DNA from: Planctomycetia bacterium
GTDB lineage: Bacteria > Planctomycetota > Planctomycetia > Pirellulales > PALSA-1355
Direction: 5' to 3'
Length of the DNA stretch: 64,000 bases
NCBI GenBank assembly: GCA_041497975.1
Contig: JBGQHN010000001.1
Coordinates: 3,888-67,887, forward strand
In this document: in pieces, positions 6,414 to 40,542 of the stretch
Position numbering within the stretch: position 1 is the first letter of the stretch
Layout: every line of letters begins with the position of its first letter
The notes under the pieces: generated by a model
The model's database searches: none
What the model saw: the letters and a program-made list of their open reading frames with translations, nothing else
Told to the model about the DNA's origin: nothing
Made by a program: the position numbers and the translations under genes

Positions 6414-7802
6414 TCAGGCCACGCGCGCGTTGACGCGCCGCAACAACGGACCTTGCTGCTGGCCGGGGACAAAACCATTAACCGGCCTGTACGCAAGCTG
6501 CACGTCAATGTTTTCCCACAAAACCAGGCTGTCGGCAATCCTCGTCATGGCCCGAATGTCGCCGTCCTGCGAGACCACGAAACCCAGAGCTCCCGGTTTG
6601 TCGTAACAGTACCGCATCATGGCCCGATGGCGCGTGCCGTATTGCGTCAATTCGGACTGCCGCAGCAACTTTGGGTCGGCGTGAGAATCGCGAGCCACGA
6701 AGATGTCGCTAAGCAGATTGTCGGTGCGCACTTCGACTCCAAATCCGTGCACCACCATGCGGCGATCCACAAGCACAAAACCGTCGACGCAAGACAGAGA
6801 GGCAATGAACCGCACCGCCCCCAGAACTTCGTTCTTGTGCTCGCGAGATTCCCAAGCCCAGGGCACGTCGCCGCGCCCGGCGTAGGGCAGCACGTCGCGG
6901 CCGTTGCTCGCCTCTCCCTCCGCACGAGTATGCGACGGATGCAACTGGCTTTCGACCATGCGGCGCAGCGCCTTGAGCAACCGATCGTAGCGAATCTTGT
7001 ACTTGACGTTCAGACCGTCGAGCGTTGTTTGCGGCGTGATCAACAATCCGCCGCCGTGCCGATAGCGTTGGATATTCATCAAGATGCGGCAGATCGCGTT
7101 TAGCCACCGCATCAAGAGCTCGGCCTCCAGATCGACCGGCGAAACTTGCTCGGGCGTTTTTGATCCCGTGTCAACCAGATAGCTCCGCAGGCAATTGGCC
7201 AACAGGTCGTGAACGGGGCCCGACCAGAGCACGTCGTGGTACTCTTCGACAAGCGTATTCTGCTCCAGGCTGCCAATGAGCAGGTCGTTTTGATATACCG
7301 AGATATTGCCTACGCCCGTGATCGTGGCTTGAAACAAACCGGGCCGCTCGGGCGTTGTGCCGGCGTCGAGCGCGATGAAATCGCTGTGGCGCGGCTCTTG
7401 GTCGACCATGCCCCAAATGAACAGCTTGTTCTTCTTGTCGCGAAACACCGCCAACGACGAGACGGCCGGATCGGCGGCCCGAGCCAGCTTGGACAGTGTG
7501 CGCACGTCGAATGGCAAGGGCCGCTCGAATGGCACGTGGCTCCAACAGTCGGCCGGGCGCTGCGCCGCGGCTTGGCCCTGGCGCTCGTCGGGATCTACAA
7601 AATTCACGGTGCAAAAGATCGGCCGTCCCTCGTCGGTCTTCAGGCTGGCGAAATACAACGTTTCGAGCAGTCGGGTGAGAACGGCTTCGGCCGGCGCGCC
7701 GCCGTGTTGGCTGCGAAGACGTGTCGCGACCAACTTCGCCAAGTGGCCCGGATATTGCGTGGTTCGATCGATCATCAGGCGGTCGCCGGCGACTGCTAGC
7801 AC
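6414..7802 (-). CDS. Hypothetical protein with C-terminal diadenylate-cyclase-like (DisA_N/DAC-like) domain
   Basis: 462 aa from GTG 7802 (alternative ATG at 7775). The C-terminal third has, in order, RHGGGLLITP, VDGFVLVDRRMVVHGFGVEV, YGTRHRAMMRYC and ALGFVVSQDGDIRAMTR. These parallel the DAC-domain blocks (GALIV, DGA..I, GTRHRAA, VVSEE.G.IS). The ~300-aa N-terminal region is unrecognised. Confidence 0.6.
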   Translation of the reverse strand: MLAVAGDRLMIDRTTQYPGHLAKLVATRLRSQHGGAPAEAVLTRLLETLYFASLKTDEGRPIFCTVNFVDPDERQGQAAAQRPADCWSHVPFERPLPFDVRTLSKLARAADPAVSSLAVFRDKKNKLFIWGMVDQEPRHSDFIALDAGTTPERPGLFQATITGVGNISVYQNDLLIGSLEQNTLVEEYHDVLWSGPVHDLLANCLRSYLVDTGSKTPEQVSPVDLEAELLMRWLNAICRILMNIQRYRHGGGLLITPQTTLDGLNVKYKIRYDRLLKALRRMVESQLHPSHTRAEGEASNGRDVLPYAGRGDVPWAWESREHKNEVLGAVRFIASLSCVDGFVLVDRRMVVHGFGVEVRTDNLLSDIFVARDSHADPKLLRQSELTQYGTRHRAMMRYCYDKPGALGFVVSQDGDIRAMTRIADSLVLWENIDVQLAYRPVNGFVPGQQQGPLLRRVNARVA

Positions 7803-8761: not shown

Positions 8762-9232
8762 ATGATTCGCAAGATTGCCGCCGGCGCGGGCATTGGCCTG
8801 GCGATTGCCGTCGCGTCGTTTGCATATCTCGCCGCCTTGAGCATCTTTTCCAAGCGGCCGTCGAACCTCGGCCTGGTGGATGGTCGATTGCGCGCCTGCC
8901 CGAACTCTCCGAATTGCGTTTGCACGCAGGCGACCGACGCAGAGCATCGCATCGAGCCGTTCAGGTTCGCCGGCAGCGCCGCTGAAGCGCTCGAGCGGCT
9001 CAAGCAAGTCATCGGCGCGCTGCCACGGACGAAGATCGTGACGACAAGCGGCGACTACGTGCACGTTGAATTCACGACGCTGGTCATGCGATTTGTCGAC
9101 GACGTGGAATTTGCCGTCGACGAGAAAACCAGGACGATCCACTTTCTCTCCGCGTCGCGCGTCGGGTACTCCGACCTGGGCGTCAATCGCCGCCGCATGG
9201 AGTCCATTCGCGCGGCATTCGAAAAAAGTTGA
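8762..9232 (+). CDS. DUF1499 domain-containing protein
   Basis: N-terminal TM helix, then CPNSPNCVCTQ and VEFTTLVMRFVDDVEFAVDE...SASRVGYSDLGVNRRRME, typical of DUF1499. Confidence 0.8.
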   Translation: MIRKIAAGAGIGLAIAVASFAYLAALSIFSKRPSNLGLVDGRLRACPNSPNCVCTQATDAEHRIEPFRFAGSAAEALERLKQVIGALPRTKIVTTSGDYVHVEFTTLVMRFVDDVEFAVDEKTRTIHFLSASRVGYSDLGVNRRRMESIRAAFEKS

Positions 9233-9346
9233 TCCTCGCGGGGCGGTCCCAGCCGGCGGCCGCGGAGCGCCCCCTGCCCTGCTCTCTTGGCTCGGTGCCT
9301 TCTCGCGCCTGAAGCGCGGGCGGCGAGTCGCCACACGCGGGTGACC

Positions 9347-10273
9347 CTACGACGTGATGCCCTTGGTCAGCGCCATGAAAGCCGTCTCCAGGTTCAACTC
9401 GTCTTCCTTGAACAGCGACAACTTGAACCCGGCCTCGACCAGCAATGTCGCCAGTTGGGTGTAATCGGCAGCCGCGGGCACCAGCGTGACGACCAGTAGA
9501 TTGCCGCGCGAAGCGACTTTCTCCACGCTCGGGTGATCTTCAAGCAGCCGGGCCGCCGCGTCACGATTTTCGACCACGCCGACGTTGAGAATCGTTTGCC
9601 GGCGGACCTGTTTCATCACTTGCTCGACGTCCGCGTTGACCAGCAACTCGCCCCGTTCGATGATGCCGATCTTGTTGCAGATGTCGGCCAGCTCGGGCAG
9701 AATGTGGCTCGAAACCATGATGGTTTTGCCCAGGTTGCGCAGCTCTTTGAGCAGGCCGCGAATTTCGATTCGGGCGCGAGGATCCAGTCCGCTGGCCGGT
9801 TCATCGAGCAAGAGCACCTGCGGATCGTGCAGCAGCACGCGGGCCAGACCCAGGCGCTGCGTCATGCCGCGCGAAAGACTTGTCACCAGGGCCTCGCGCT
9901 TGTAGCCCAGGTCCACCAGGTCGAGCACTTCGCCGCAGACCTGGCGGCGCTTGGCCCCCTTGATGCGATATGCGGCGGCGAAAAACTCGAGATACTCGAT
10001 GACTTTCATGTCGTCGTAGACGCCGAAGAAGTCGGGCATGTAGCCGATGATGCGTCGGATGTCGCGCGCTCGGGTATAGATCGAATATCCGCAGACGTAC
10101 GCCTCGCCCCAGGTGGGATTGAGCAGCGTGGCCAGGATGCGCATGGTGGTTGTTTTGCCGGCGCCGTTGGGCCCGATAAAGCCAAACACGTCCCCTTTTT
10201 TCAGGTCGAGTTCCAAGGCCTTGACGGCAAACAGTTCGCCGTACTTCATCGTCAGGTCGTGTGCTTCAATCAC
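9347..10273 (-). CDS. ABC transporter ATP-binding protein (ABC-2 type)
   Basis: Walker A GPNGAGKTTT, signature LSRGMTQRL, Walker B LLLDEPASGLD and H-loop SSHIL. It is the last gene of a co-directional operon, and no permease gene is adjacent. Confidence 0.9.
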   Translation of the reverse strand: MIEAHDLTMKYGELFAVKALELDLKKGDVFGFIGPNGAGKTTTMRILATLLNPTWGEAYVCGYSIYTRARDIRRIIGYMPDFFGVYDDMKVIEYLEFFAAAYRIKGAKRRQVCGEVLDLVDLGYKREALVTSLSRGMTQRLGLARVLLHDPQVLLLDEPASGLDPRARIEIRGLLKELRNLGKTIMVSSHILPELADICNKIGIIERGELLVNADVEQVMKQVRRQTILNVGVVENRDAAARLLEDHPSVEKVASRGNLLVVTLVPAAADYTQLATLLVEAGFKLSLFKEDELNLETAFMALTKGITS

Positions 10274-10340
10274 CGAAAAGCTCCCTTGGCGTATGCAGCT
10301 GCTCTACGGCGCCGGCGGCGCGGTCTGGAGATTTGCCATT

Positions 10341-12641
10341 TCACGGCGACGACCGATCTTGCACCCCAAACACGTAGCGCTGGAACGTCCACTGAGCGCC
10401 GGCCGCGTCCACCAGCGGCTGTGCGTCGCGCTGGAGGGTCGCCGCCTGCCCGGCGCTGCGTCCGACAAGGACCGCCCGGCCGTTTTGTACCAGCCCGCTA
10501 AGTTCTACGAAACCTTGGTACTTATGGGCCAGACCCGTGTATTTTTCACCGCCGGCCAATGAGTGCGACGTCATGATCTCGACGATCTTGGCAATATCGA
10601 ACGATGCACGATCATAAGGCAAGGCGACGTTGCGGTCTCCCTGAACCGTCACGCGGCGCAAATAAGTCTCGACGCGTTGCGGATCCAGATCGGTTTCAAT
10701 GGCGATGGTTTGGTCGGGTCTCAATTGTCGCAGCGGATAGGCCCAGCGCTCGTAGAAGAGCACGCAATCCTCGAGCGCGTGTTGCGAGCGGTTGTTGAGC
10801 GTGCCGACGAGTCGTCCCGTGTCGCTCAGTTGGGCTTCGATGGCCGGCGTGCCCGACTGCCACCATCGTCCGACAAAGGCCTTACTCGACCAGTCGGCGA
10901 TCGGCACGCGCTGCATGCGCTCGAGGTTGTGGGAAAAGTCATAGGCCTCGGTAAACATCGGCGTGCTGCTGCCGGTCGCATCCATGCCCCCAAAACCGCT
11001 TCCCGGCAATCCCAGCCACGAGAAGACCAGGCCGGCCGCCACGGGAGACTTTTCGGCCGCCACGCGAGGACCGAGCGAGAGATCGTAAAGGTCGACCTTC
11101 GGACTGAAGACGGCCGCCCAACTTGTGCCTCGCACCAGTCTTGTCTCGGCGTCGAAATCGACGAGATCAATTCGATTGACCCGCACCTCCCGGCCCTTGA
11201 GCCCATAGGTCAGCGCATACGCCCCCGCGCTGAATGCCACCACGGTGACGGCGAACGTGAGCCAGGTTAATTCCATTCGGCCGAGCACGCGCTTGATGAT
11301 GAAATAGTCGAGTGGGCCGATGCAAACGATATAGGCCACAGCCAGCAGCGCCACCAGCCAGAATGGCACAAGCTCGACGCCCGCAAACTGGTCCAATGCG
11401 CCGCGCAACTGGCCGGAGAGATCGTCGAAGCCCAACGTCGTCACTTGCCCCAGTCCCTGTGACTCATCTTGCGAAACCCGCGGAGCCGACCTGCCCAACA
11501 GCTTGTCGAAAAGCTGCGCCCGCCCGCGCCAGCCTGCCAGCGGTGGCCCTTGGAGATCGAAGGCAACGAACACTACTTCGCCAAATCCGTGCGGCGCGCG
11601 AACGATCAGCGGCAGATCGCGGGCATGGCTGCCGGCATAGGCCTCTATTTTCCCCCGCACGTTTCGCAGCTTTGGCACCTGCAAGGCGAACGCGCCGCCC
11701 TGGGTAGTAAGCGGTTCGGACGTTTCGGCGTAGGTCTCAAATGCCGTGCTTTGCCGCAGTGGCACGAGCGCCTCGAACTCTCCGGGCGCGAGCCTCGCCA
11801 GCGGAGACTCCCCGGTCAATACCTTATCCGCCTGCGGGCCGACGCTCAGAATCAACTGGCCCCCCATCGTCACCCACCGGTCCAACGCGGCGAGTTGCGC
11901 AGCGTGGGAAGCGAGTTGCGCATTGGTTTGATCGGGCACGGTCGCGAGGATAACGGTATCGACCCCCTCGTAGCCCAACCAATTGGTTGGCAACTGGCCA
12001 AGATCGTTCACGTTGGCCACTTTGGCTCCGCGCTCGTCCAGGGACGTTTCGTCCTCAGCCGATAGCGGTGAGCCGAACGCCACAATCAAAGTCCAGTCCG
12101 ATGGAAGGATACCGCCCAGTTGTGGATTGTCCACCGTGCTAAACGTACGGCTGGCCAGCAAGCGGTCTTGGCTGCGGAAACCGACGGTCAGGTCGCTATG
12201 TAGCCGCCCGACCTTGGCGTACAAAAGCACCGCCGTCTTCTCGCCCGGACGAATCGTTATGTCTTGGCCGCTTGGGTCACACACCCGGGATGGCACGGCA
12301 TCGCCGTCGAGCGCGGTCAATTCAACGGAGCCGCTGACCTCCTCGTTGCCGCCTTGAAGCGTGATTTCAAAGGGGGTCCAATAACCCACTTTGAACCGAC
12401 CCGCGAAACCCGGCCGAATTCCCGTGACCGTTGGCGATTCGGGTCGGATTGCGAGCCGGGTTGGCTCGGGGGGTGTCGGTTCGTATTCGGTGGCGAGTAG
12501 CGCCGTCGGCCAACATGGGCTCGCCCAACAAAGGGTCATGCCCAGCACCGCCGGCCACAAACGAAGTCGCGCGACCATCCCACGTCGACGACGTCTGGCT
12601 GGGGCCTGGCTGTGCAGGTCGCGTCCGACTCGGCCGGTCAT
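10341..12641 (-). CDS. Large hypothetical membrane protein (766 aa)
   Basis: ATG 12641 forms an ATGA overlap with the MazG-like stop. It has a signal/TM segment (LRLWPAVLGMTLCWASPCWPTALLA) and a large extracytoplasmic part with a Rossmann-like segment VDTVILATVP...WVTMGGQLILSVG. Two central TM helices follow (FWLVALLAVAYIVCIG, WLTFAVTVVAFSAGAYALTYGL), then a further ~300-aa domain. No family recognised. Confidence 0.7.
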   Translation of the reverse strand: MTGRVGRDLHSQAPARRRRRGMVARLRLWPAVLGMTLCWASPCWPTALLATEYEPTPPEPTRLAIRPESPTVTGIRPGFAGRFKVGYWTPFEITLQGGNEEVSGSVELTALDGDAVPSRVCDPSGQDITIRPGEKTAVLLYAKVGRLHSDLTVGFRSQDRLLASRTFSTVDNPQLGGILPSDWTLIVAFGSPLSAEDETSLDERGAKVANVNDLGQLPTNWLGYEGVDTVILATVPDQTNAQLASHAAQLAALDRWVTMGGQLILSVGPQADKVLTGESPLARLAPGEFEALVPLRQSTAFETYAETSEPLTTQGGAFALQVPKLRNVRGKIEAYAGSHARDLPLIVRAPHGFGEVVFVAFDLQGPPLAGWRGRAQLFDKLLGRSAPRVSQDESQGLGQVTTLGFDDLSGQLRGALDQFAGVELVPFWLVALLAVAYIVCIGPLDYFIIKRVLGRMELTWLTFAVTVVAFSAGAYALTYGLKGREVRVNRIDLVDFDAETRLVRGTSWAAVFSPKVDLYDLSLGPRVAAEKSPVAAGLVFSWLGLPGSGFGGMDATGSSTPMFTEAYDFSHNLERMQRVPIADWSSKAFVGRWWQSGTPAIEAQLSDTGRLVGTLNNRSQHALEDCVLFYERWAYPLRQLRPDQTIAIETDLDPQRVETYLRRVTVQGDRNVALPYDRASFDIAKIVEIMTSHSLAGGEKYTGLAHKYQGFVELSGLVQNGRAVLVGRSAGQAATLQRDAQPLVDAAGAQWTFQRYVFGVQDRSSP

Positions 12642-12991
12642 GGCTTCTCCGCGTCGGCACAAGTACAAACGAACTGGCCGCAACCGGGGCAACCCGACCC
12701 ATACTTGCGCATCACGGCGTCGCTCAGATCGACTTCGGCCACATTGGCGATCGTCGCCAGCCAGGCCAGCACATCGGCAAACTCGGCCGCGCGTTCCTGA
12801 TGCGTGCCACTGCGCAGCGCGCTGGCCAATTCGCCGATTTCTTCCATCAGCCACATGAACGTGCCGTCGATGCCCCGCGCGACGTCTTTCTCGAAATACA
12901 TATCGCGGATCAGCCGTTGAAAATCGGCCAGATTTACCGCGGGACGCGCTTGCTCGGGCGACGGCCGGGAACCTTCTGTCTGGTGATTCAC
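12638..12991 (-). CDS. MazG-like nucleotide pyrophosphohydrolase domain protein
   Basis: 117 aa from a GTG start (GTGA overlap with the upstream stop). WLMEEIGELASAL and AAEFADVLAWLATIAN are the paired acidic helices of all-alpha MazG-type NTP pyrophosphatases. The C-terminal tail GCPGCGQFVCTC is Cys-rich. Confidence 0.8.
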   Translation of the reverse strand: MNHQTEGSRPSPEQARPAVNLADFQRLIRDMYFEKDVARGIDGTFMWLMEEIGELASALRSGTHQERAAEFADVLAWLATIANVAEVDLSDAVMRKYGSGCPGCGQFVCTCADAEKP

Positions 12992-15882
12992 TCGAGTGTC
13001 TCCAAGAGTTCTTGGGCTCCCTGGTGTTTCGGATCCAGCTTGAGAAGCTCTTCGAGTACCGGCTTGGCCCGGTCCGGCCGTTTGGCCTGGATGTGCATCT
13101 TGGCGAGAGCCAGTCGCAATGCCAGGTCGTCGGGGTCGAGCTCGACGGCCGCCGCGTATTCATCGGCCGCTGCCGCGGCGTTGCCCAGCGCCGCGAGCGC
13201 CTCGGCCCGCCACTGGTGCAATTGGGGATCCATCACCTGGATGCGCAGTCCCTCCAACGACCACTGTCCCGCGGCCGCCCAATCGCCTCGGGCCACGGCA
13301 AGTTGAGCCAGTTTCTTGCGGGCCGACAGATCATCGGCATCGGCCGCCGCCAAGCGGGCCAACACGTCGGCCAGCTCGCTGTTCTGTCCGGATTTCAAAT
13401 AGACGGCGGCCAGCGATTTGAGCCACTTCACACCGTTGGGATCGCGCTTGGCGCCGAGCTGATACAATTCGGCGGCCGCCGAGTAATCTTCGGCCTTCAA
13501 CTTCAGCCCGGCCAACAGCGCGAGCAGATTCTCCTGTGGGTTTTCGCGATCCAGGGCGCCTTCCAGACGCGCCAGGGCCGCCTTGTTCTCGGCCACCAGC
13601 AAATGCAACCGAGCCCGGACGTAATTGGCCAGAGCGTTGCGTGGCTCGACCTTCATCGCCGCGTCGGCCCAGCGCCGCGCGTCGGCATAATTCTTGCGCC
13701 CCAACTGGGCTTGGGCCATGCGGGCCATCAAGTCCGCGTCCTGGGGGTTCTTGGACAATCGTTTCTGTACTTCGCTCAAAGTCATTGCCGGCGCCTGGGC
13801 CGCGGTCGGCAAGTGAGCAATGACTTTCTTGACGGACTGGCGATAACCGTCTTCGAAATCGCGCGGAGTGACGTTGAACGAACGCGCCAGGGCTTCCGGC
13901 GTGCCCAAATTGTCCGCGTACGCGGCCAGCATCTTGGCAATCGCATCGTCGCCGAACCGCTCGAGCATGTACTGGGCGTACAGTTCGGCCTGGCAGTACG
14001 CCAGGGTCCATTGGTCGCTCGATTGCGGGCGAATGAAGCCGAGATTGATCGACTCGAGGTCGAACAGCTTGTTGGCCGCGAAGTGTTCGAGAAGCACGTC
14101 GTTCCACGCCTGGGGCCGCGGGTATCCCTCGTTCAAGACGGCCACCGCTTCGGTGAACCAATGCGGTATGTTGAAATCGGTCTGCTGCAAATTGATGACG
14201 TGCACGAATTCGTGCTTGAGCACGCGCGCCCAGTTAAATCGCTGTTCGCCTTCGCTGGGCGACTGCAGCGCCACGATCTTGCCGGCACAAGCGCCGATCG
14301 GATGTATGTGTGGCAGCCCGACCATCCGCGCGCTGAACCAGCCGTGGCCGTCGGTGTTCTTGGCCTGGCTGAACACTTCGAAGAGCGATTTGTCGGGCGG
14401 CGCGTAGCCCATCTGCCGCACCAGGTGCGGATAGACCTCTTCCAGCCAATCGCCCATGTAGCGCGCCAGCAGCCGGTCTTTGGCCGGATCGAACTTGATG
14501 CGGAAGTGCTCGGTCTCCTGCGTTTCGTACGTGGCCAGCACTTCCAACACCTTGAGGGTGTTGTTCACGCGGACGTTGAAGGGATCGATCTTGAACGCCT
14601 CGTCGAGCACCGCTTTGGCCTGCTCTTCTTCGCCCAATCGCATGAGCATCATGCCCAACTGGCCGCCGGGGCCGATCAGTTGCGGCATCCGCGTCATCGC
14701 CTCGCGGTAGTAGTGTGCCGCCGCCGGCCAACGGCGCAGACGGTCGAGCGCGTCGGCGAGGGTCTCGAAAAAGACGCCCGGGTGAGGATTGCGCCCGGTA
14801 ACTTCGGCCACCAACTTGCCGAAGCGCTTGTCGTCCATCGTACGGGCAAGCCCATCGACCGCGGCATATCCGGCCGCCATTCGCCCCAAAGTCTCCTCCG
14901 AGTGCGGGTGCAATTTCAATGCTTCCGTCAAGACGCCGATGCATTGGCGCGGCTCGAAATTCGCCAGGTGAATGTCGGCTTTCAAGTGCCATGCATCGAG
15001 CAATTGCGGATTGATCTCCATTGCGCGATCGCAGGAAGCTTGGGCGGCGGCCAACTCGAACTCTTCCAGCGACAGTTGGCCCAAGGCCACGTGCACTTCG
15101 GCCGCGTTATGGTTCAGCTCGAGCGCGGCCTTCAACTCCTTGCCCGCGTCGGCCATGTTGTACTTTTCGGCAAACAGCCGTCCAGCTTCGTAGTGTGCTT
15201 GCCAACAAGTCGGATCGGTCGACACGAGATCCGGATAGAATTCGTTCACCAGAAAGCCGAACTGATCGCTCAACCGATTCCAGCGGGCGAATTGGGCCGC
15301 CCCCAAGCCCACCCAGCGCAAGTTGCGTGGATCTTTGACTCGGCCGGCATTGAACAACTTGACCAGCCGCTCGTAGCCGGCGTTGGCCTGTGCCAGGCAA
15401 CCCGCGGCGCAATCGAGTTCGGCACGCACCCACAAGGCCAGGGTCTGGTCATTGTCCAGCTTCAGCGCGGCGGCTGCTGACTCGTCGGCCGCCTCGTAGT
15501 CCCCGCGGCCCAACGCCAGGCGGGCCAACTCAGCCTGCAGCGTCGCGGCCTCTGGGTGCTTTTTGGCCGCTTCAGCAAGGGTTTGCACGGCCTGTTCGCG
15601 CTGGCCGACCGCTTCCTGGCAGGCGGCCACGCCCCTGGCCGCCTCCACTGCGTTCTGGGCCCTCAGGGCACGATACGCGTCTTGGGCTTCGGCGTACTTT
15701 CCCTCCTGCGATAGCCGGTGCGCCGCGGCCAGCGGGCCTTCAGCCGCGGGCTCGTCGGCGGCCAGACCGACACGGCAAAAGGCCAGCGCCAGCCATGCCC
15801 CTCCCCAGGCCGCGATCCGGAAGGAAGACTTCAACGGGAGGCTCACGATAGCTCCATGCAGGGTCGCAACCGACAGTCGCAT
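12988..15882 (-). CDS. Exported TPR-repeat protein with embedded HExxH (peptidase MA-like) domain
   Basis: 964 aa from an ATG start with a signal-like N-terminus. TPR-like A/L/Y-rich repeats lie on both sides of a central block RVLKHEFVHVINLQQTDFNIPHWFTEAVAV (HExxH plus a downstream Glu, gluzincin-like). Confidence 0.8.
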   Translation of the reverse strand: MRLSVATLHGAIVSLPLKSSFRIAAWGGAWLALAFCRVGLAADEPAAEGPLAAAHRLSQEGKYAEAQDAYRALRAQNAVEAARGVAACQEAVGQREQAVQTLAEAAKKHPEAATLQAELARLALGRGDYEAADESAAAALKLDNDQTLALWVRAELDCAAGCLAQANAGYERLVKLFNAGRVKDPRNLRWVGLGAAQFARWNRLSDQFGFLVNEFYPDLVSTDPTCWQAHYEAGRLFAEKYNMADAGKELKAALELNHNAAEVHVALGQLSLEEFELAAAQASCDRAMEINPQLLDAWHLKADIHLANFEPRQCIGVLTEALKLHPHSEETLGRMAAGYAAVDGLARTMDDKRFGKLVAEVTGRNPHPGVFFETLADALDRLRRWPAAAHYYREAMTRMPQLIGPGGQLGMMLMRLGEEEQAKAVLDEAFKIDPFNVRVNNTLKVLEVLATYETQETEHFRIKFDPAKDRLLARYMGDWLEEVYPHLVRQMGYAPPDKSLFEVFSQAKNTDGHGWFSARMVGLPHIHPIGACAGKIVALQSPSEGEQRFNWARVLKHEFVHVINLQQTDFNIPHWFTEAVAVLNEGYPRPQAWNDVLLEHFAANKLFDLESINLGFIRPQSSDQWTLAYCQAELYAQYMLERFGDDAIAKMLAAYADNLGTPEALARSFNVTPRDFEDGYRQSVKKVIAHLPTAAQAPAMTLSEVQKRLSKNPQDADLMARMAQAQLGRKNYADARRWADAAMKVEPRNALANYVRARLHLLVAENKAALARLEGALDRENPQENLLALLAGLKLKAEDYSAAAELYQLGAKRDPNGVKWLKSLAAVYLKSGQNSELADVLARLAAADADDLSARKKLAQLAVARGDWAAAGQWSLEGLRIQVMDPQLHQWRAEALAALGNAAAAADEYAAAVELDPDDLALRLALAKMHIQAKRPDRAKPVLEELLKLDPKHQGAQELLETLE

Positions 15883-15994
15883 CCACAGTCACCCACTAGG
15901 TTTACCGTAACGCAACCGGCGTAAGCGTACAAGCCTCAAGTTCAGCACGTTGCGTGTTGCGTTTGTGGCGCCATGCGATGCAAGCTCGTCAACC

Positions 15995-16831
15995 TCACTC
16001 CAACAGCCAATCGACGACTTGCACCAGGCCGTCTTCGTCGTGGCTGGGAGCGATCCGATCGGCGGCCAGCTTGACTTCAGGCAGCGCGTTGTCCATCGCG
16101 ATGCCCAGACCGGCCGCCGCGATCATGGGAATATCGTTGACGTCGTCGCCCGCGGCGCAGATTTCCGCAGGCTCAATGCCCCATTCCGCGGCCAGCCGGG
16201 TCACTCCCGTCCATTTGCTGACGCCAAAGGGCGCGATTTCGCAGATGTAGCCGGTATATCGTGGACTGCGAAGCACGTGCACGTATAAATGTTCCGGTAG
16301 TTTTTCCTCGAGTTGTTGCGCGAGGCGCAACATTTCATCGCGAGGGCCCATGGCGAACCCGGCAAAAATGCCCGAGGGTGGCTCGCTCATCAGCGCCGGA
16401 AAAACGCGCTCGAAGCCCGCGTTTTTTTGAAAGAATTCAATCATCTCGGGCCGACCCGTCTCGCACGTCGCACAATAGTAGTCAAACCCAAGGTCGAACG
16501 TGTCGGCATAGAGGACGGCCTCGTAGCCGGTCTTGGATACGGTTTCCAGACACGATTCGAGCGCTCCCGGGTTGAACGACGCGCGAAACAGAGTGCAATG
16601 ATCGGAAGCCCGCTTGATCAAAGCGCCACTGGCGGTCACCAGCGGCACGTTGAGCTGGAGCGGTTCGACGAGCGGCAGCACGCGGCTGTAGCGGCGCCCG
16701 GTGGCCAGCACGATTTCGATGCCGGCCCGCTTGGCGCGCAAAATGGCGTCCCGCGTCGCGTTGGTCAACTCGTTGCGGCTGTTGACCAGCGTGCCATCAA
16801 TATCGATTGCCAATAAGCGATAACGCGCCAT
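15995..16831 (-). CDS. Cof-type HAD-IIB family hydrolase
   Basis: From ATG 16831 the protein reads MARYRLLAIDIDGTLVNS (motif I), then LATGR and a C-terminal GDDVNDIPM (motif IV). The 152 upstream codons of the track ORF are unsupported. Confidence 0.85.
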   Translation of the reverse strand: MARYRLLAIDIDGTLVNSRNELTNATRDAILRAKRAGIEIVLATGRRYSRVLPLVEPLQLNVPLVTASGALIKRASDHCTLFRASFNPGALESCLETVSKTGYEAVLYADTFDLGFDYYCATCETGRPEMIEFFQKNAGFERVFPALMSEPPSGIFAGFAMGPRDEMLRLAQQLEEKLPEHLYVHVLRSPRYTGYICEIAPFGVSKWTGVTRLAAEWGIEPAEICAAGDDVNDIPMIAAAGLGIAMDNALPEVKLAADRIAPSHDEDGLVQVVDWLLE

Positions 16832-17086
16832 GGAAAAACCGTTGGTAAGCAAGCGCTCGCGGACCGGGCGCCCAGGCCCTTTGAGGGCTCGCGTTCGCCT
16901 TCCGCCGCAAGTATCGCAAAAACTTGCACCGCCGAACACCCGCCGAAGCCCTGCAGCTCGACGAGCGGCACGGCGTTTTCCGACCTCAATCGCCGCGCGA
17001 TCAAGTCGATGCTCTGTTCCCCAGTGCGGAAGGCATCTAAGATATTGAGTCTGCCAAGGAAAACGCACTTCGGGTTGCTTTCGCTC

Positions 17087-17398
17087 ATGGCTGAATGGGT
17101 AACGGTTGCAAAAGTTGGCGCCATTGGCGAGGGCAGCGGCGCGGCATTCCCCGTGGGCGACAAACTGGTAGCTGTCTTTAACCTGGGCGGCGGGGTGTAT
17201 CGAGCGATCAACGATCTCTGCCCGCACATGGGCGCGTCGTTGGCCGACGGCTATGTGGAGGACGGCGTGGTGACGTGCCCCTGGCATGCCTGGCGATTCC
17301 GCGTGTGCGACGGCACCTGGTGCGACAACCCGCGCATCAAGACCGATACGTTCGAAGTGCGCGTCGTGGGGGACGAGATCCAGGTGCTTTCGCAGTGA
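17087..17398 (+). CDS. Small Rieske [2Fe-2S] domain protein (NirD-like)
   Basis: 103 aa from ATG 17087 with the Rieske ligands CPHMGASL...CPWHAWRF. Confidence 0.85.
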   Translation: MAEWVTVAKVGAIGEGSGAAFPVGDKLVAVFNLGGGVYRAINDLCPHMGASLADGYVEDGVVTCPWHAWRFRVCDGTWCDNPRIKTDTFEVRVVGDEIQVLSQ

Positions 17399-17413
17399 CG
17401 CCGTTGACGGTGA

Positions 17414-17525
17414 AGCCCGCTGCCTGTCGAAATTGGGACAGGCACCTCGCGGATGCGTTTTTCACGCTTTTTCGGGAGATGTGGCTCGGAGCCAGTCCCC
17501 TTTTTCAACGGCCTGGTAAGTGGCT
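17414..17525. repeat. Hairpin-forming intergenic repeat, copy 1 (REP/MITE-like)
   Basis: Aligns by eye with 41593-41710. Uninterrupted shared blocks are tgggacaggcacct (14 nt), gtttttcacgctttttcgg (19), tggctcggagccagtccc (18) and tttttcaacggcc (13). The left arm gcctgtcgaaattgggacaggcacc is an imperfect inverted repeat of the right arm ggagccagtcccctttttcaacggc. The element ends at the TGA stop of the minus-strand MBL gene. Confidence 0.8.
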
Positions 17526-18208
17526 CAAAGCGTGATCGTGCCGCCGGGGGCGACCACGATCGGCTCGGCCTTGGTTTCGGCCTTGATCCTGGCGGCCCAG
17601 GCAGACGTATCCTGCGCGATTGGCGGCCAGGTGTTGTAGTGCGACGGCACGACGCGTTTGGGCTCGAGGAGTTTGACGGCCTGCACCGAGTCGTTTGGCC
17701 CCATGGTAAAACGATCGCCGATCGGCACGACGGCCAGCTCGAGTCCGACAGCGCCGATCAACTTCATGTCGTAGAACAGGCCGGTATCGCAAGCGAAATA
17801 AACGTTGCCATCGGCCAACGCGAGCAGGAACCCGCCCGGATTTCCGCCGCCGCTGCCGTCGGGCAACACCGAACTATGATGCGCGATGGTCATCTGGACG
17901 CGTCCGAACGGCAGATCGATGCCGCCGCCGATGTTCATGGGCTGCGTGTTCTTGACCCCCTGCTTGCCGAGCCACTCGCAGATCTCGTAGTTAGCGACGA
18001 CGGTCGCGCCGGTGCGGTTTGCGATCGAGGCAGCGTCGGCCACGTGATCAAAGTGGCCGTGCGAAACGAGCACGAAATCAGGCTTCACCGCGTGGGCTTT
18101 CACCGGAGCCGTGGGAGAATCGTTCAAGAAAGGATCGATGAGGATCGTTTTGTCACCGGCCTTCACCAGCCAACAGCCGTGTCCTAACCAGCGCAATGTT
18201 GTCGCCAT
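17525..18208 (-). CDS. Metal-dependent hydrolase, MBL fold (UPF0173-like)
   Basis: 227 aa. LRWLGHGCWLV...ILIDPF and the LVSHGHFDHV metal-binding motif. Confidence 0.85.
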   Translation of the reverse strand: MATTLRWLGHGCWLVKAGDKTILIDPFLNDSPTAPVKAHAVKPDFVLVSHGHFDHVADAASIANRTGATVVANYEICEWLGKQGVKNTQPMNIGGGIDLPFGRVQMTIAHHSSVLPDGSGGGNPGGFLLALADGNVYFACDTGLFYDMKLIGAVGLELAVVPIGDRFTMGPNDSVQAVKLLEPKRVVPSHYNTWPPIAQDTSAWAARIKAETKAEPIVVAPGGTITL

Positions 18209-23426: not shown

Positions 23427-24239
23427 TCATTTCCTGTTCTGTTCCTCCGCCAAGCGCTTATAGTAACGTTCGATCATCAGTTCGTATTGTGGCAAAAATC
23501 GCTCCGGCGAGTTTTGCAACATTTGTTCGCGAGCCCGCTGGGGCAGATGTCCCCAAGCGTCCTTCAATAGCCCTTTGACCAATTCCGGATCGGGCCGCGC
23601 GTCTTCGGCCTTGCCCAGACGATCCGTGCTGTCTTGGGCCGGCTTGTTCGAATCCTTGCCCGACTTGCCGGCCGACGGTTTGGATTGCTGAACCTGTTGT
23701 CGCTTGCTGGTTTGCTGTTTCTTGTTCTTTGTCGACGCGGCCTGCTGCGCGGCGCGCTGCTGCTGGGCTTGTTCGATCAACTTAGCCAGGTCTTCGACAA
23801 TTCGCTGCTGCAGGTGCTCGGCGTGCGCGCGCTGGGCGCGATCGGTAATCAAACTCTCTGCGGACCGCATCTCTTGGCTGATATACGAAAGAGGGTCCTC
23901 TTCGGGGCTTGGCATGCCGATATCTTCGCCGTCAATAACGGATTGATCGAGTGGCTGCTCGCTCGACTTGTCACCAGCGGGGCGCTTTGACCGCCGGCTG
24001 TCCTTGGCATCGCCGGCGCCCTCAAGCAGTTCGTTGTCCAGATCCTTCAGTAGCGTCTCGTCGAGCGTGGGTTCCGCGGCGCTTTTTTTTGCCGCGGGTG
24101 GGGCGTCTTGGGGTTTAGAATCCGGTTCGCCGGCGGCATCGGCTGGTGCCAGCGCCAGCGTAAACGCCAACAGCCCGGCGCACGCGACGATGAGCGGAAC
24201 AGCCGGCGACGATCGCGAAAACCAGCACGCGTTAGCCAT
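23427..24239 (-). CDS. Secreted charged hypothetical protein
   Basis: 270 aa with a signal peptide (PLIVACAGLLAFTLALAPADA), an acidic then Q/K-rich low-complexity middle, and a conserved-looking C-terminus WGHLPQRAREQMLQNSPERFLPQYELMIERYYKRLAEE. It has an 8-nt overlap with the upstream gene. Confidence 0.6.
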   Translation of the reverse strand: MANACWFSRSSPAVPLIVACAGLLAFTLALAPADAAGEPDSKPQDAPPAAKKSAAEPTLDETLLKDLDNELLEGAGDAKDSRRSKRPAGDKSSEQPLDQSVIDGEDIGMPSPEEDPLSYISQEMRSAESLITDRAQRAHAEHLQQRIVEDLAKLIEQAQQQRAAQQAASTKNKKQQTSKRQQVQQSKPSAGKSGKDSNKPAQDSTDRLGKAEDARPDPELVKGLLKDAWGHLPQRAREQMLQNSPERFLPQYELMIERYYKRLAEEQNRK

Positions 24240-27200
24240 CAGAATCCTTTTCTACCGCCGCGCGTGGTTCGCCGGGGGGCGGTGCTATGTCGCCTGGCGG
24301 ACCCTCTTGGCGCACGTCAGGAAGCTTTTCGGGATCATCCTCTGGATTGTCCGCGGGGGGCTCGGCCAATTTGAGCGTCAAGTCCGCCAGTTTGCCCTGC
24401 TCGGCGGCAATCTCAGTTAATTCTTGATCGGCCGTTGCGGCGGCGTCGTCCTTGGGCGTAGTCAGGGTTCGATACCGACCGTTGAGATCTTCTTGCAAGA
24501 TCTTGAGCAACTTCAATTGGGTTAATACGTAGTTGCCGTCGGATCGAGCACCTTTTCCGCCTGCCGATCCGCCGCCTTCCGCGCCGCCGGACTTCGCTTT
24601 GGCCTTGTCTTCGAACGCCGTCAGCAATTGGGCCAGCCGCACCCGAGCCGCCTCCTGGCTGCCCTGTGTAGCGGTGCCGGTCTCGCGGTGTGTGAGCAAT
24701 TCGGCGGCCCGCGTCATTTGCTTGGCGGCCCCGCCGAGCGCCAAGTTGATGACTTCGGTGAGCGAGAGCTTTTCAGCCAATAGGGAAGTGTCGCCCTCCA
24801 GTGATTTCTGCTGGCGAGCCAGATCGTTGACCGTGCTGAGCTGAGCCCGCGTCAGGCGGCCCGCGCTGGCGCGCAAGTTCTCGATCCGCTCGGTTTCCTG
24901 GATGAGTTTTTTCTGGCGCTCGTGCAAGCTCTTGAGCGAGTCTTCCAGACGGGCCATCTGCTCGCGGGCCAAATCTTCTTCCGCTTGACGCCGTCGCTGC
25001 GCCAGTTGCTCTTGAGCTTCCTGCAGATCTTTTTCCGCCTTTTCGGCTTGTTGTTCGGCCGCCGCCGCGTCGCCCTGTTGCCCGGCGTTGCCCGCCTGCT
25101 GCATCTTGCCTGCCGCGCCCGAAGTGCTGCGACCGGCTTGCTCCGCCTGCAAGCGTTCCAGCCGCCGGGCCAGTCGGGCCGCCTCGTCCTCGAGTTTCTT
25201 TTGTTCGCGAGCCAGACGTTCGAGCTGCTGTTTTCGCTCGGCGTCCGGCTTGTCAGCCGCGGCGCGCATTTGCTTGCGTAGACCGGCCTGGCGCTCTCGG
25301 ATGTTGGAAAGCTGTTGTTCCGATTCGCGCAGCTGCTTGACCAGTCTGGTGAGTTCCTGCTCGCGCCGATTGGACAAGATCGCCATCAGGTCTTCGAGAT
25401 CCTTGGCGATCTTTGTCTGTTGCTCGACGGCCTGGCCGAGTTGATTTCGCTCCAGCTGTTGGCTCGACTGCCGCATTTGCCCGCTGATGGCTTGTTGCTG
25501 CGACTGGTGCAGTCCGTCGGAAATCGTCGCGGCCGAAAGAGGGTCGGTTTGTTGGAGCGACTGGGTCGTTTCGGCCATCTGCTGCTGGACTTTTTCCAGC
25601 CTGCGACTCAACTCGACCTGTTGGGCCGAAAGTTTTTTCAAGTCCGCCTGCTGCTGCGAGTCAAGATCTTTCAATTCCCGTCCCAGGGTCTTTTGACCGA
25701 TTTCCTTGGTGGCGCTGGCAATCGCTTCCTGATCGCGCTGCAGGTGCGCGACATCTCGGGCAAAGCGGCGGTAGTTGTCCCACTGGCCCAGTTCACTCAA
25801 CATGTTTTCCAGCGACGAAATCACCTGGTCCTGATTCGCTCCGGCGCTGGTGAGCGATTTGTTCACCAGTGGGTCGACCTGGGTTTGCGACGGAGTCTGG
25901 CCGGCGTCTTGAGGCAATTTGGACTGGGCCGTCTTGATCAAACTCGTCAGGTCACGCTCGATGGCATTCAAGTGTTGTTGGCCGAGCCGGTCGAGCTCCT
26001 CCATGATCGCGGTCATGTGCCGTTCGATTTCGGGGCTATCGACGCGGTTGTTGCCGAGATCGGTCAGAAAATCGCCGATCTGCGCCGGAATGCCCTCGGT
26101 CCGGCTCGTTAAGGTTCGCGTCACCTGGCGTTGATTCAGCTCGGCGCTCTGCGCATGGTCGACATCTTGTTTATTCAGTCGCCCGACCTGGTCCAATTGG
26201 ATCTCTAGTGACTTCGTCTGCGCGCGTGCATCCTGTTGCAACTTCAGCACGCGCTGTAACTCACCGACGATCAATTGCTGCCGTTGAGCAAGGCGTTCTT
26301 CGAGTTCCGCCGGCGTGATGATTGAAATCTGGCGGACGGTGCTCTTGCCTAGTTGCGGCACATAGTCACTGGCGGTGGCCCAAAACGTGAGTTGTGAACC
26401 GGTCTTGAGACCCAAATCCGCGAGCGACCAGCGATGTTCCAACACTCGCGTTTCGCCCAGGTGTCCGCCGACCAGCAGCCCCGGGGAAACCTGGGGGGGC
26501 ACTTTGTCGGGTCCCTGATGAATTGGTACGGCAAAGTCCTCCACGTCCGAGCGGTCCGAGCGGCTGAAGTGCAAGCCGATTTCGCGAACGGCCAGATCGT
26601 CTTTGACCGCGATCTTAAGCGGCACTTCGCCTTGCGGAGTCACGAAGATATTGCCCGTGGGTTGCTCGACGGTAACGGTCGGCACCTGATCCACGATTGC
26701 GCGGATTTCCCAGCGATCGTCGGCGCCCCCGATCAGACCTGGGCCATCTTCGAGTGCGATCCAGTAGGCGCCGGATTTGTCGATGACAAATGGGCTCTCG
26801 GCATCGGTACCCAGCGAGAACCCGTAAGCGTCCGCCGACAATTGCAAGCTCAGCTGGGGGCCATTTTCCTGGTGGATCTTGGCGCCGCGAAGCTTTTTTG
26901 TCGAAATGCCCGATAGCTCGACGCGAGTGCCGCGCAACGCGTAGATGTTCTTTTCGCACGACTCGACGGGCAAGCCGGTATAGTCCGGCGGATGCAGCGT
27001 CAGTTGCAACGAATCGAGCTTCGGAGGCTCGACCACCTCCAAGTGAATCCACTCCATCGAAGAATCGTCGCCCCCCTCGGCCCGATACCAAAATGGCCGA
27101 GTCACGTTTTCCTTTCGGGCGACCATTGTTCCATTCAGCAAGGTCATGGACTCGGATACTTCTTCGACGCTCGACGCGCCGGCATCATAGCGATAGTGGA

Positions 27201-27882
27201 TGCGAACTTCGTCGGGCACGCGGTGTTGGGCGTCCCGAACGAGTTCGACCTCGAAGGACTGGCCGGCGGCCAATCGCGTCGGAGCTTGCCGAAAAGCCAG
27301 ACGGTAGAACTTGGGCCAGCTTTCGCCGCCCAGGGGCCGGGCAAGCCGCCCCAGTGCAATGCGGGCAGCCGACGGCGACACGGCGAGAACTCCAAGCGCG
27401 ACGGCTCCCACGACGGCCGCCACCAGCAGCGCGCGACGCGTCGGTCGGCGCTCGAAGACGCTCGAAAAGTCCAAGCCTTCAACGTCGGACGCCGTCCTGA
27501 GTACTACCGCGCGGCGCAGGACCGCTGAGCCCGCCAGGGTGTCGGTCTCCGACTGCTTGAGAAACTGAATCGTGCTGGCCAGGCGGTCTGTCAAACTGGG
27601 GAATCGCCGCTCGATGCGTTGCGCAAGCTGGAGATCGTCCAACCGGCGGGCGAAACCGACGATCCAAAATCGAACGCAGGCCCACGCAAAAACAAGAACC
27701 ACCGCCAGGCTGCACATCAGCCGGATGCCAGGGTCTTGAAAACGAATGAAATAGTCCGCCAAGCCGAGCAGCAACACGGTCAGCGTCACCAGGCTGACGG
27801 TCCAGCTCAGGGCATACAAGGCCATCAGCCGGCGAGCCTGGAAACGCACCTGGCCAATTTTCTGTTCCAGCGGATGTGCCAT
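24232..27882 (-). CDS. Membrane-anchored giant coiled-coil protein (1216 aa; DUF4175-like topology, tentative)
   Basis: N-terminal TM helices (LMALYALSWTVSLVTLTVLLLGLADYF; LMCSLAVVLVFAWACVRFWIVGF), a beta-rich middle region, then about 600 aa of Q/E/R/L/A-rich heptad-like sequence and a Pro/acidic tail. Confidence 0.75.
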   Translation of the reverse strand: MAHPLEQKIGQVRFQARRLMALYALSWTVSLVTLTVLLLGLADYFIRFQDPGIRLMCSLAVVLVFAWACVRFWIVGFARRLDDLQLAQRIERRFPSLTDRLASTIQFLKQSETDTLAGSAVLRRAVVLRTASDVEGLDFSSVFERRPTRRALLVAAVVGAVALGVLAVSPSAARIALGRLARPLGGESWPKFYRLAFRQAPTRLAAGQSFEVELVRDAQHRVPDEVRIHYRYDAGASSVEEVSESMTLLNGTMVARKENVTRPFWYRAEGGDDSSMEWIHLEVVEPPKLDSLQLTLHPPDYTGLPVESCEKNIYALRGTRVELSGISTKKLRGAKIHQENGPQLSLQLSADAYGFSLGTDAESPFVIDKSGAYWIALEDGPGLIGGADDRWEIRAIVDQVPTVTVEQPTGNIFVTPQGEVPLKIAVKDDLAVREIGLHFSRSDRSDVEDFAVPIHQGPDKVPPQVSPGLLVGGHLGETRVLEHRWSLADLGLKTGSQLTFWATASDYVPQLGKSTVRQISIITPAELEERLAQRQQLIVGELQRVLKLQQDARAQTKSLEIQLDQVGRLNKQDVDHAQSAELNQRQVTRTLTSRTEGIPAQIGDFLTDLGNNRVDSPEIERHMTAIMEELDRLGQQHLNAIERDLTSLIKTAQSKLPQDAGQTPSQTQVDPLVNKSLTSAGANQDQVISSLENMLSELGQWDNYRRFARDVAHLQRDQEAIASATKEIGQKTLGRELKDLDSQQQADLKKLSAQQVELSRRLEKVQQQMAETTQSLQQTDPLSAATISDGLHQSQQQAISGQMRQSSQQLERNQLGQAVEQQTKIAKDLEDLMAILSNRREQELTRLVKQLRESEQQLSNIRERQAGLRKQMRAAADKPDAERKQQLERLAREQKKLEDEAARLARRLERLQAEQAGRSTSGAAGKMQQAGNAGQQGDAAAAEQQAEKAEKDLQEAQEQLAQRRRQAEEDLAREQMARLEDSLKSLHERQKKLIQETERIENLRASAGRLTRAQLSTVNDLARQQKSLEGDTSLLAEKLSLTEVINLALGGAAKQMTRAAELLTHRETGTATQGSQEAARVRLAQLLTAFEDKAKAKSGGAEGGGSAGGKGARSDGNYVLTQLKLLKILQEDLNGRYRTLTTPKDDAAATADQELTEIAAEQGKLADLTLKLAEPPADNPEDDPEKLPDVRQEGPPGDIAPPPGEPRAAVEKDSDG

Positions 27883-38990: not shown

Positions 38991-39665
38991 TCAGCGTGCC
39001 CCGGCGGTCTCGGCCGCTTGCGCGATCGGTTTATCTTCGTCTCCGCCCTCGGCTTCAACAACCTGCAATAGCTTTTTGAGCATCTCCACCTGATCGGGCT
39101 CCGTCAGCCGAAACCGGCCGCGAACCTGTCCCTTGCGATCCACCACGCACGCCCGGTCCGTATGCGCGCCCTTTTCCACCGAAATCTGGAAAAAATCCTG
39201 GCCGACGCGCTCAATCAGCCCCATGTCGCCGGTCAAGAAGGTCCACCGCGCCGGATCGGCATGGAAATGCTGCGCATATTTCGTTAACGCCTCGGGCGTG
39301 TCGTTTTCCGGATCGCAGGTGATACTGACATAGCGCACGTTGCTTTGTGGGTTGGTCTGTTGAATCGCGGCCAGGGCTTGATTCAACCGCCAACATACGG
39401 CCGGGCAGTTGGTGAAAAAGAAACTCGCCACCCACACCTTTCCCCGCAGGCTATTGGAGTCAAACGGCCGACCGGATTGATCCGTGAGCGTAAATTCGCT
39501 CAGCGGTGGCCGCTTTGACATCGGCTGCCGTGCCATAAGATCCGGCGAGGCGGGCCCGACGATGGCCTCATTCGTGGACTGGATGTGGCGCGCGGCGACA
39601 TACGAAGCGTAAATCGCGACCAGGCAACTGGCCAAAATGAGCCAGAATTTCACGGAACCTGTCAT
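38991..39665 (-). CDS. SCO family copper chaperone / thiol-disulfide protein
   Basis: 224 aa from ATG 39665 (ATGA overlap with the permease stop). N-terminal TM anchor, FFFTNCPAVC (CxxxC) and a thioredoxin-fold remainder with conserved His (AQHFHADP). Confidence 0.9.
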   Translation of the reverse strand: MTGSVKFWLILASCLVAIYASYVAARHIQSTNEAIVGPASPDLMARQPMSKRPPLSEFTLTDQSGRPFDSNSLRGKVWVASFFFTNCPAVCWRLNQALAAIQQTNPQSNVRYVSITCDPENDTPEALTKYAQHFHADPARWTFLTGDMGLIERVGQDFFQISVEKGAHTDRACVVDRKGQVRGRFRLTEPDQVEMLKKLLQVVEAEGGDEDKPIAQAAETAGAR

Positions 39666-40540: not shown

Positions 40541-40542
40541 GG

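Follow-up and report, generated by a model that had tools for sequence, protein, structure and literature searches.

What does a planctomycete operon encode when it joins an exported protease-like protein, a nucleotide pyrophosphohydrolase-like protein, a large membrane protein and an ATP-binding cassette (ABC) ATPase with no permease beside it, and which protein is the partner of that ATPase? The operon lies in a 64,000-nucleotide (nt) stretch of contig JBGQHN010000001.1 (GCA_041497975.1, Planctomycetia bacterium, Pirellulales), which is called the window here. The 766-amino-acid (aa) membrane protein is named P766, its 308-aa ABC ATPase is named ATPase1, and a sister pair found in relatives is named P968 and ATPase2. 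The genes and junctions of the operon, from open reading frames (ORFs) and Pfam families, are as follows.

12988-15882, minus strand: tetratricopeptide repeat (TPR)/gluzincin protein, 964 aa (ORF and Pfam)
12988-12991, minus strand: GTGA stop/start overlap of the TPR-protease gene and the MazG-like gene (sequence read directly)
12638-12991, minus strand: MazG-like protein, 117 aa (ORF and PF03819)
12638-12641, minus strand: ATGA stop/start overlap of the MazG-like gene and P766, with translational coupling (sequence read directly)
10341-12641, minus strand: P766, 766 aa (ORF, with its ATG at 12641)
9347-10273, minus strand: ATPase1, 308 aa, of the ABC-2/DrrA/GldA type (ORF and PF00005)

The ATG of P766 at 12641 sits within a longer mechanical ORF. 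P766 and ATPase1 are separated by 67 nt, with GGGAG 7 nt ahead of the GTG start of ATPase1. Coordinates and sequence thus agree with the initial annotation, which had described four minus-strand genes joined by a GTGA overlap, an ATGA overlap and a 67-nt gap. Its remark that no ABC permease adjoins the ATPase also holds, since the genes next to ATPase1 (DUF1499 and a YjbQ-like gene) lie on the opposite, plus strand.

Sequence comparison establishes this region as one of two paralogous modules of Pirellulales that are predicted to be ABC-driven and to act in the envelope, the core of each being a protein with a transmembrane hairpin and a dedicated ATPase. The comparison covers 80 genomic loci of P766 homologs, which come from Pirellulales-type planctomycetes; the denominators for single genes (65, 74, 63, 78 and 55) are subsets of these 80, and 65 is the number of loci with enough sequence for the ATPase count. 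P766 is followed within 2 kb by an ATPase gene in 63 of 65 loci. In the sister module, ATPase2 comes directly after P968 in 6/6 loci (L084 and L087-L091). Two paralogous modules thus keep a hairpin protein in front of a 308-aa ATPase; hairpin protein and ATPase are almost certainly functional partners, and they quite probably form one machine.

The other members of the operon are kept to different degrees. The MazG-like gene is directly upstream of P766 in 73/74 loci, with a 4-nt overlap between the MazG stop and the P766 start in 63/78, and the TPR-protease gene is upstream of MazG in 39/63 (about 60%). Spacers from P766 to the ATPase are mostly -4 to about 120 nt, while the TPR/MazG junction is variable in relatives, at about -58 to +139 nt with one group at -4. 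P766 homologs are 35-64% identical to the window protein, MazG homologs 65-87% and ATPase homologs 65-94%. Downstream of the ATPase, a neighbour is common to 9 of 55 loci at most, and no permease is conserved on either side of the cassette in the 80 loci. L049 has an NDH-2 gene (12007-13461) inserted between P766 and the ATPase. Because the MazG-P766-ATPase order is kept over 80 loci, the arrangement is more than chance. The four genes are a real, tightly conserved unit, of which the TPR-protease is the optional upstream member. The gene mix that was first described as unusual is thus a conserved one, its order being kept while P766 diverges to 35% identity, and the embedding of MazG by overlapping codons is conserved as well. 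The survey of gene order that had been suggested as a check comes out in favour of the cassette for ATPase, MazG and, less often, TPR-protease. A literature search on MazG plus ABC in Planctomycetes turned up nothing that describes such an arrangement. Locus L061 is labelled 'uncultured Granulosicoccus sp.', a gammaproteobacterium, and all other loci are from planctomycetes; the L061 contig is probably mis-binned. A second ATPase with permeases beside the cassette in L017 was considered and judged an unrelated neighbour.

P766 has no match in profile searches of Pfam, NCBIfam and PDB sequences. A profile search with P766 over 1.84 billion cluster representatives gives 10,700 clusters with E<=1e-3, of which 2,540 reach E<=1e-30. 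P766 belongs to a large superfamily without annotation, the cluster count probably including paralogs. An AlphaFold model from a 25-sequence alignment has a predicted local distance difference test score (pLDDT) of 83.6 and a predicted template-modelling score (pTM) of 0.83. It starts with a basic and hydrophobic N-terminal segment, poorly conserved and signal-peptide-like, followed by a beta-sandwich (71-168) and an alpha/beta domain that carries a beta-sheet extension (177-360). The helix at 408-416 is juxtamembrane and leads into a tight hairpin (427-453 and 456-482, with the turn at G454-R455), and the chain ends with further beta-sandwiches (487-640) and a small alpha/beta domain (645-760). 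In the hydropathy profile the central hairpin alone is strongly hydrophobic. Hydropathy and model agree with the first description of the protein as one signal/transmembrane segment, two central transmembrane helices and two large non-membrane domains. Its predicted parts map to the window as follows.

11547-12446, minus strand: P766 residues 66-365, immunoglobulin-like beta-sandwich and class-I glutamine-amidotransferase-like (DUF4350-like) domain (model and fold search)
11196-11426, minus strand: P766 residues 406-482, juxtamembrane helix DLSGQLRGALDQF, first hairpin helix (TM2), tip and second hairpin helix (TM3) (AlphaFold and conservation)
11262-11315, minus strand: P766 residues 443-460, the scored segment of the putative cytoplasmic tip GPLDYFIIKRVLGRMELTW (residues 442-460)
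10344-11195, minus strand: P766 residues 483-766, putative second periplasmic region with beta-sandwiches and a small alpha/beta domain (AlphaFold; no Pfam match)

If the N-terminal segment is an export signal, the two large domains of P766 would lie in the periplasm and the tip GPLDYFIIKRVLGRMELTW alone would be exposed to the cytoplasm. The model thus suggests a topology with two periplasmic domains around a transmembrane hairpin. Conservation within P766 is highest in the juxtamembrane helix, hairpin and tip, with column values of 0.67-0.79 versus 0.51-0.59 in the rest of the mature protein, and this region is proposed as the coupling element.

A separate model of residues 66-400 has a pLDDT of 92.9. 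Its best PDB fold match is 3SOZ (STM1381, amidotransferase-like) with a target-normalised TM-score of 0.54, and the next matches are non-catalytic domains of GH164 and related glycosidases. DUF4350 (PF14258) matches 19 of 36 P766-family members weakly (best E 1e-4), the window P766 itself reaching 14 bits, below the cut-off of 30.4, and one family member weakly matches Glyco_hydro_42M. Taken together, these matches indicate a non-catalytic class-I glutamine-amidotransferase-like domain. Of the fold search that the initial annotation had suggested, the N-terminal part leads to this 3SOZ-like fold, and the full-length part is uninformative: against the PDB, full-length P766 retrieves generic beta-sandwiches (GH2 mannosidases, factor XIII, COPI mu-homology) with TM-scores of 0.1-0.2.

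ATPase1 matches PF00005 (ABC_tran) with E 9.5e-25. Its best NCBIfam models are GldA and DrrA, both below the equivalog/subfamily cut-offs (GldA 225.6 vs 402.6 bits), and the FtsE model scores 107 bits against a cut-off of 265. Walker A (GPNGAGKTT), signature (LSRGMTQRL), Walker B with the catalytic Glu (LLLDEPASGLD) and H-loop (SSHIL) are intact, so the call of an ABC-2 type ATPase stands. The Q-loop Gln is replaced by Asp (GYMPD, residues about 76-82) in 55/55 ATPase1 and 4/4 ATPase2 sequences checked, and another ABC ATPase in the window keeps the usual Gln. ATPases of the ABC-2/DrrA/GldA type pair with six-transmembrane ABC-2 permeases, and the window holds one candidate of this kind.

60900-62522, plus strand: fused double ABC-2 permease, 540 aa, 2 x PF12679, of the GldF/NosY type (Pfam; no adjacent ATPase)

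The fused permease is 67-86% identical across the order, and the sampled fused permeases form a single graded group with 62-82% identity. It is likewise an orphan in five related genomes (L081, L082, L083, L085 and L086), and comes after argininosuccinate synthase in L082, L085 and L088. The sister module supplies a different setting. In L084 (2048-7638), P968 is followed by the 308-aa ATPase2 and then, after a 13-nt gap, by a fused permease that is 69% identical to the window permease. In L088 the permease is 2.8 kb from the P968-ATPase2 pair, so that among six loci it is adjacent in L084 only and nearby in L088. The direct succession in L084 indicates that the sister system, at least, includes a permease of the GldF/NosY type.

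The two modules are clearly related. P968 of L084 has 968 aa and no Pfam domain, and three elements of P766 recur in it: amidotransferase-like domain, juxtamembrane helix and hairpin. Aligned as profiles (hhalign), the two families match with a probability of 97% and E 1e-10 over 529 columns, in which all three elements are included. Hairpin, juxtamembrane helix and tip are invariant in the P968 family, and the tip pattern P-x-[DN]-[YW]...G-R-x-E-x-[TA]-W is common to P766 and P968. ATPase2 of L084 is 49% identical to ATPase1 of the window with zero gaps, both having 308 aa. Among themselves, ATPase2 sequences have 81-90% identity; they have 46-51% to ATPase1 and 31-34% to another ABC ATPase of the window. 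Both modules occur in one genome, as L066 and L087 from GCA_040219575.1 and shared locus-tag prefixes show. MazG is absent from the sister module (L084, L087-L091). Members of the P968 family have 820-970 aa, some with an N-terminal LPGC lipobox-like motif and EF-hand matches. In L089, L090 and L091, ATPase2 is followed by a 262-aa Metallophos_2 phosphoesterase and then by TadE and VWA genes; this phosphoesterase by the sister module echoes the MazG by the P766 module.

Two claims of the initial annotation are divided by these results. The ATPase lacks a permease locally, as it had stated, with no fused-permease homolog within 10 kb of P766 in 80 loci, but for the sister system a permease stands in line in L084. 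Pairing of ATPase1 with the distant permease at 60900-62522, which it had named as a refutation, is a candidate arrangement. Likewise, its proposal that P766 is the membrane partner of the ATPase gains from a pairing kept in two modules, but the status of sole partner does not follow, given the permease in line in the sister module of L084.

As six-transmembrane ABC-2 permeases are usual for this ATPase subfamily and the L084 order includes one, a tripartite architecture is favoured. The module is tentatively read, with somewhat less than an even chance, as a multi-component ABC-2 envelope machine like GldAFG or NosDFY, in which P766 would be the hairpin-anchored periplasmic part, MazG a lineage-specific add-on in the cytoplasm and the TPR-protease a frequent partner in the periplasm. 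ATP binding and hydrolysis by an ATPase dimer would act through the inner membrane on the periplasmic domains of P766. The conserved hairpin with its cytoplasmic tip would provide the path, most likely in concert with the fused permease encoded separately at 60900-62522, and the resulting architecture would be like GldA-GldF-GldG or NosF-NosY-NosD. The output would be mechanical work on an envelope substrate or partner rather than solute import. By analogy with FtsEX-EnvC, the exported TPR/gluzincin protein is the best candidate for such a partner. At the cytoplasmic face, MazG could be a stoichiometric subunit or a local nucleotide-hydrolysing regulator, in the P766 module only.

Several observations weigh against this tripartite machine. 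No fused-permease homolog was found within 10 kb of P766 in the 80 loci searched; direct permease linkage exists only for the sister ATPase2 and not for ATPase1, and a permease that is never found beside the P766 module may serve ATPase2 alone. P766 has no match to GldG (PF09822), NosD or FtsX, and its central hairpin is unlike the GldG topology. A search for PF09822 (GldG/ABC_transp_aux) at E<=1 gives no match for P766, its domains or 36 family members. In addition, GldG or IFT52 structures do not occur in the top 50 fold matches of residues 66-400. The cytoplasm-exposed part of P766 is only about 17 residues. In L047 and L071, P766 has no neighbouring ATPase, and in L079 a cyclophilin gene (9389-9922) stands directly before P766 instead of MazG. 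The roles of MazG and the TPR-protease are suggested by gene order.

The missing permease can also be taken at face value. A dimer of the P766 hairpin would then be the sole membrane partner of ATPase1, with the tip as coupling helix and no permease, giving a minimal mechanotransducer with two transmembrane helices. To our knowledge, no ABC system with a two-transmembrane partner has been described. The absence of a permease within 10 kb in the 80 loci and of anything conserved downstream of the ATPase would be expected of such a system, and adjacency of hairpin protein and ATPase (63/65 and 6/6) contrasts with a permease link in 1-2 of 6 loci. The tip is common to both families and MazG is specific to one, which favours the ATPase as partner of the tip, and the unusual GYMPD Q-loop is present in both ATPase clades. 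Against these points, ATPases of this type are known to pair with six-transmembrane ABC-2 permeases, such a permease comes directly after the sister module in L084, and a tip of 17 residues is a small docking surface. A sole-partner hairpin is judged unlikely. The same low likelihood is given to the broader version, in which P766-type and P968-type proteins are the transmembrane partners of dedicated ATPases and would constitute a new mechanotransducing class with a MazG subunit, acting on the TPR-metalloprotease.

The coexistence of two modules and one permease group allows a further arrangement, in which the halves of the fused permease would bind an ATPase1:ATPase2 heterodimer and P766 and P968 would be half-specific periplasmic accessories of one super-complex. 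One graded permease group versus two ATPase clades and two hairpin families in the same genomes fits this idea, as do the gapless alignment of two ATPases of exactly 308 aa and a permease conserved as strongly as the ATPases. However, a second permease paralog is possible, the sampling having covered a single permease in each genome, both ATPases have canonical catalytic motifs with no degenerate site, and no linkage is seen between the two modules. The idea is purely inferred and is considered very unlikely, and the tripartite machine is retained as the preferred reading.

The MazG-like protein scores 33.5 bits against PF03819 (cut-off 22), and its best PDB sequence match (E 4e-19) is 1VMG, an uncharacterised free-standing single-domain MazG from Sulfolobus, for which a literature search (1VMG/SSO3215) found nothing relevant. 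The metal-binding motif EExxE...ExxD (E50, E51, E54, E70 and D73) is invariant in 76 MazG sequences. The C-terminal tail CPGCG..C.C..KP with its four Cys is equally invariant in the 76 orthologs and lies past the end of the 1VMG alignment, which stops at KY. The first assignment as MazG-like with a Cys-rich tail is hence well founded. Since all residues of the catalytic motif are retained, the protein is probably an active enzyme, a competent nucleoside triphosphate (NTP) pyrophosphohydrolase by its motif. An inactive MazG, or its absence from orthologous operons, had been named as a refutation; the motif is intact and the gene is present in 73/74 loci. The four-Cys tail is probably a Zn knuckle, for which we infer a docking role. 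MazG-P766 fusions were sought in the long family members P0314, P0257, P0373, P0336, P0285 and P0316, and this possibility was rejected: the N-terminal extensions are low-complexity and not MazG, and are probably mis-called starts.

It may be asked whether MazG belongs to the machine at all. P766 and the ATPase could cooperate while MazG is a house-cleaning enzyme and the TPR-protease is unrelated, both being merely co-transcribed. This would accord with a TPR-protease missing in about 40% of loci, with the absence of MazG from the sister module and its replacement by a cyclophilin in L079, and with a fully canonical catalytic motif whose nearest solved relative, 1VMG, is free-standing. In contrast, MazG precedes P766 in 73/74 loci over order-level divergence, with the overlap in 63/78, and is much more conserved (65-87%) than P766, with an invariant Cys tail that is missing from 1VMG. 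Gene order is otherwise poorly kept, no downstream neighbour occurring in more than 9/55 loci. Mere co-transcription of MazG and TPR-protease is regarded as decidedly unlikely, and within the preferred tripartite machine MazG is kept as an add-on.

The 964-aa protein matches TPR families and Peptidase_MA_2 (PF13485) in Pfam, the latter with 39.5 bits against a cut-off of 32.4. The gluzincin motif is HEFVH, with an E 15 residues past the second His in the translation, and the N-terminal hydrophobic segment covers residues 23-41. The protein is predicted to be exported, with a central gluzincin domain flanked by TPR repeats. This supports the earlier description of a TPR protein with an HExxH gluzincin-like block, since PF13485 is above its cut-off and both motif and downstream E are present.

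The surroundings of the operon give few further leads. A consensus scan for promoters and terminators over 8900-16300 finds none exceeding shuffled expectation. PADLOC on the four proteins gives generic ATPase matches only and no specific match; as these are merely generic, the operon is not taken for a defence system. The TPR gene is preceded at a distance of 112 nt by a Cof-type HAD phosphatase gene (Hydrolase_3; 15995-16870), likewise on the minus strand. Homologs stand upstream of the cassette in 27 related loci, so this phosphatase is perhaps another neighbour with a loose link to it. At 6414-7802, the minus strand encodes a conserved hypothetical protein of 462 aa, of which L001 has a close homolog (16245-17777) some kb downstream of the ATPase, and in near relatives local synteny thus reaches past the operon. 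Elsewhere in the window, a canonical ABC-2 ATPase and permease pair (39662-41511, minus strand) lies beside a thioredoxin-like ORF, SCO1/SenC-type by appearance, and beside a cytochrome c oxidase and heme A/O synthase cluster (about 41.7-47 kb), and may be a copper or oxidase maturation transporter. AT skew is strongly negative (-0.315) at 24001-26000, inside a 1216-aa minus-strand ORF (24232-27882), and it stays positive from 38 to 48 kb and negative from 48 to 55 kb.

Both the envelope and the division mode of planctomycetes are unusual, many canonical envelope machines are missing from these bacteria, and much of their conserved gene content is unannotated. Against this background, the operon represents a very large unannotated superfamily tied to its own ABC ATPase, with two paralogous modules in the same genomes, and a testable candidate for an ATP-driven envelope machine in Pirellulales. 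Direct coupling of hairpin protein and ATPase would extend the range of known ABC architectures. If the unlinked permease is involved, the system would be of the GldAFG/NosDFY type but scattered in the genome, and two 'orphan' ABC genes would be explained. The fixed coupling of MazG and P766 is apparently unreported in the literature found, and could mean that an ABC machine is regulated at the level of nucleotides.

Among known systems, the module resembles GldA-GldF-GldG of Bacteroidota gliding in three ways. ATPase1 scores best against GldA among the NCBIfam models, the candidate permease is PF12679 of the GldF/NosY type, and P766 is, as modelled, a large membrane-anchored periplasmic auxiliary with an amidotransferase-like domain. 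The auxiliary domain of GldG/IFT52 is one which we take to be in the same fold class as the class-I amidotransferase-like domain of P766. In contrast, ATPase1 is under the GldA cut-off (TIGR03522) and P766 lacks a PF09822 match. The P766 hairpin is central between two putative periplasmic domains, whereas the GldG anchors are terminal. The permease here is a fused double domain encoded elsewhere, and MazG and TPR-protease are attached.

NosD-NosF-NosY is an ABC complex in N2O reductase maturation (PMC8457098). The order of periplasmic protein, ATPase and permease in the sister module of L084 recalls it, as does the combination of an ABC-2 ATPase with a PF12679 permease, where ATP would be spent on a periplasmic partner and not on solute import. 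However, P766 is without the NosD beta-helix (no Pfam match, and a model with beta-sandwich and alpha/beta domains) and has its own transmembrane hairpin. There is no nos or copper context, and the permease is fused and unlinked.

With the Type VII systems (FtsEX-EnvC, MacB, LolCDE), the module would share the proposed logic that cytoplasmic ATP hydrolysis moves a large periplasmic domain. FtsEX activates a periplasmic hydrolase, and a predicted periplasmic metalloprotease is co-encoded here. P766 differs in having no PF02687 FtsX match and two transmembrane helices instead of four, and ATPase1 is of the ABC-2/DrrA type and not of the FtsE/MacB type. In MlaFEDB and LptB2FGC, a transmembrane-anchored periplasmic accessory (MlaD, LptC) docks onto the permease, and in Mla the small cytoplasmic MlaB binds the ATPase, which is a precedent for a small subunit like the MazG-like protein. 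MCE, STAS and LptC homology is lacking, however, the accessory here consists of a hairpin and two domains, and the small protein is a MazG-fold enzyme.

At the level of single proteins, the MazG-like protein shares the Pfam family and the EExxE...ExxD motif with small MazG proteins (1VMG, MazZ 7ODY, DCTPP1/RS21-C6), but its invariant Cys tail is not in 1VMG and its stop overlaps the start of a membrane-protein gene. P766 is linked to DUF4350/3SOZ by weak recurrent matches and by its best fold match, but this is one of at least four P766 domains. By these profile and model tests, the module is not a member of the GldA, GldG, NosD or FtsX/MacB families. It is best described as an uncharacterised, putative multi-component ABC-2 envelope system, with a considerable chance of being a new ABC architecture.

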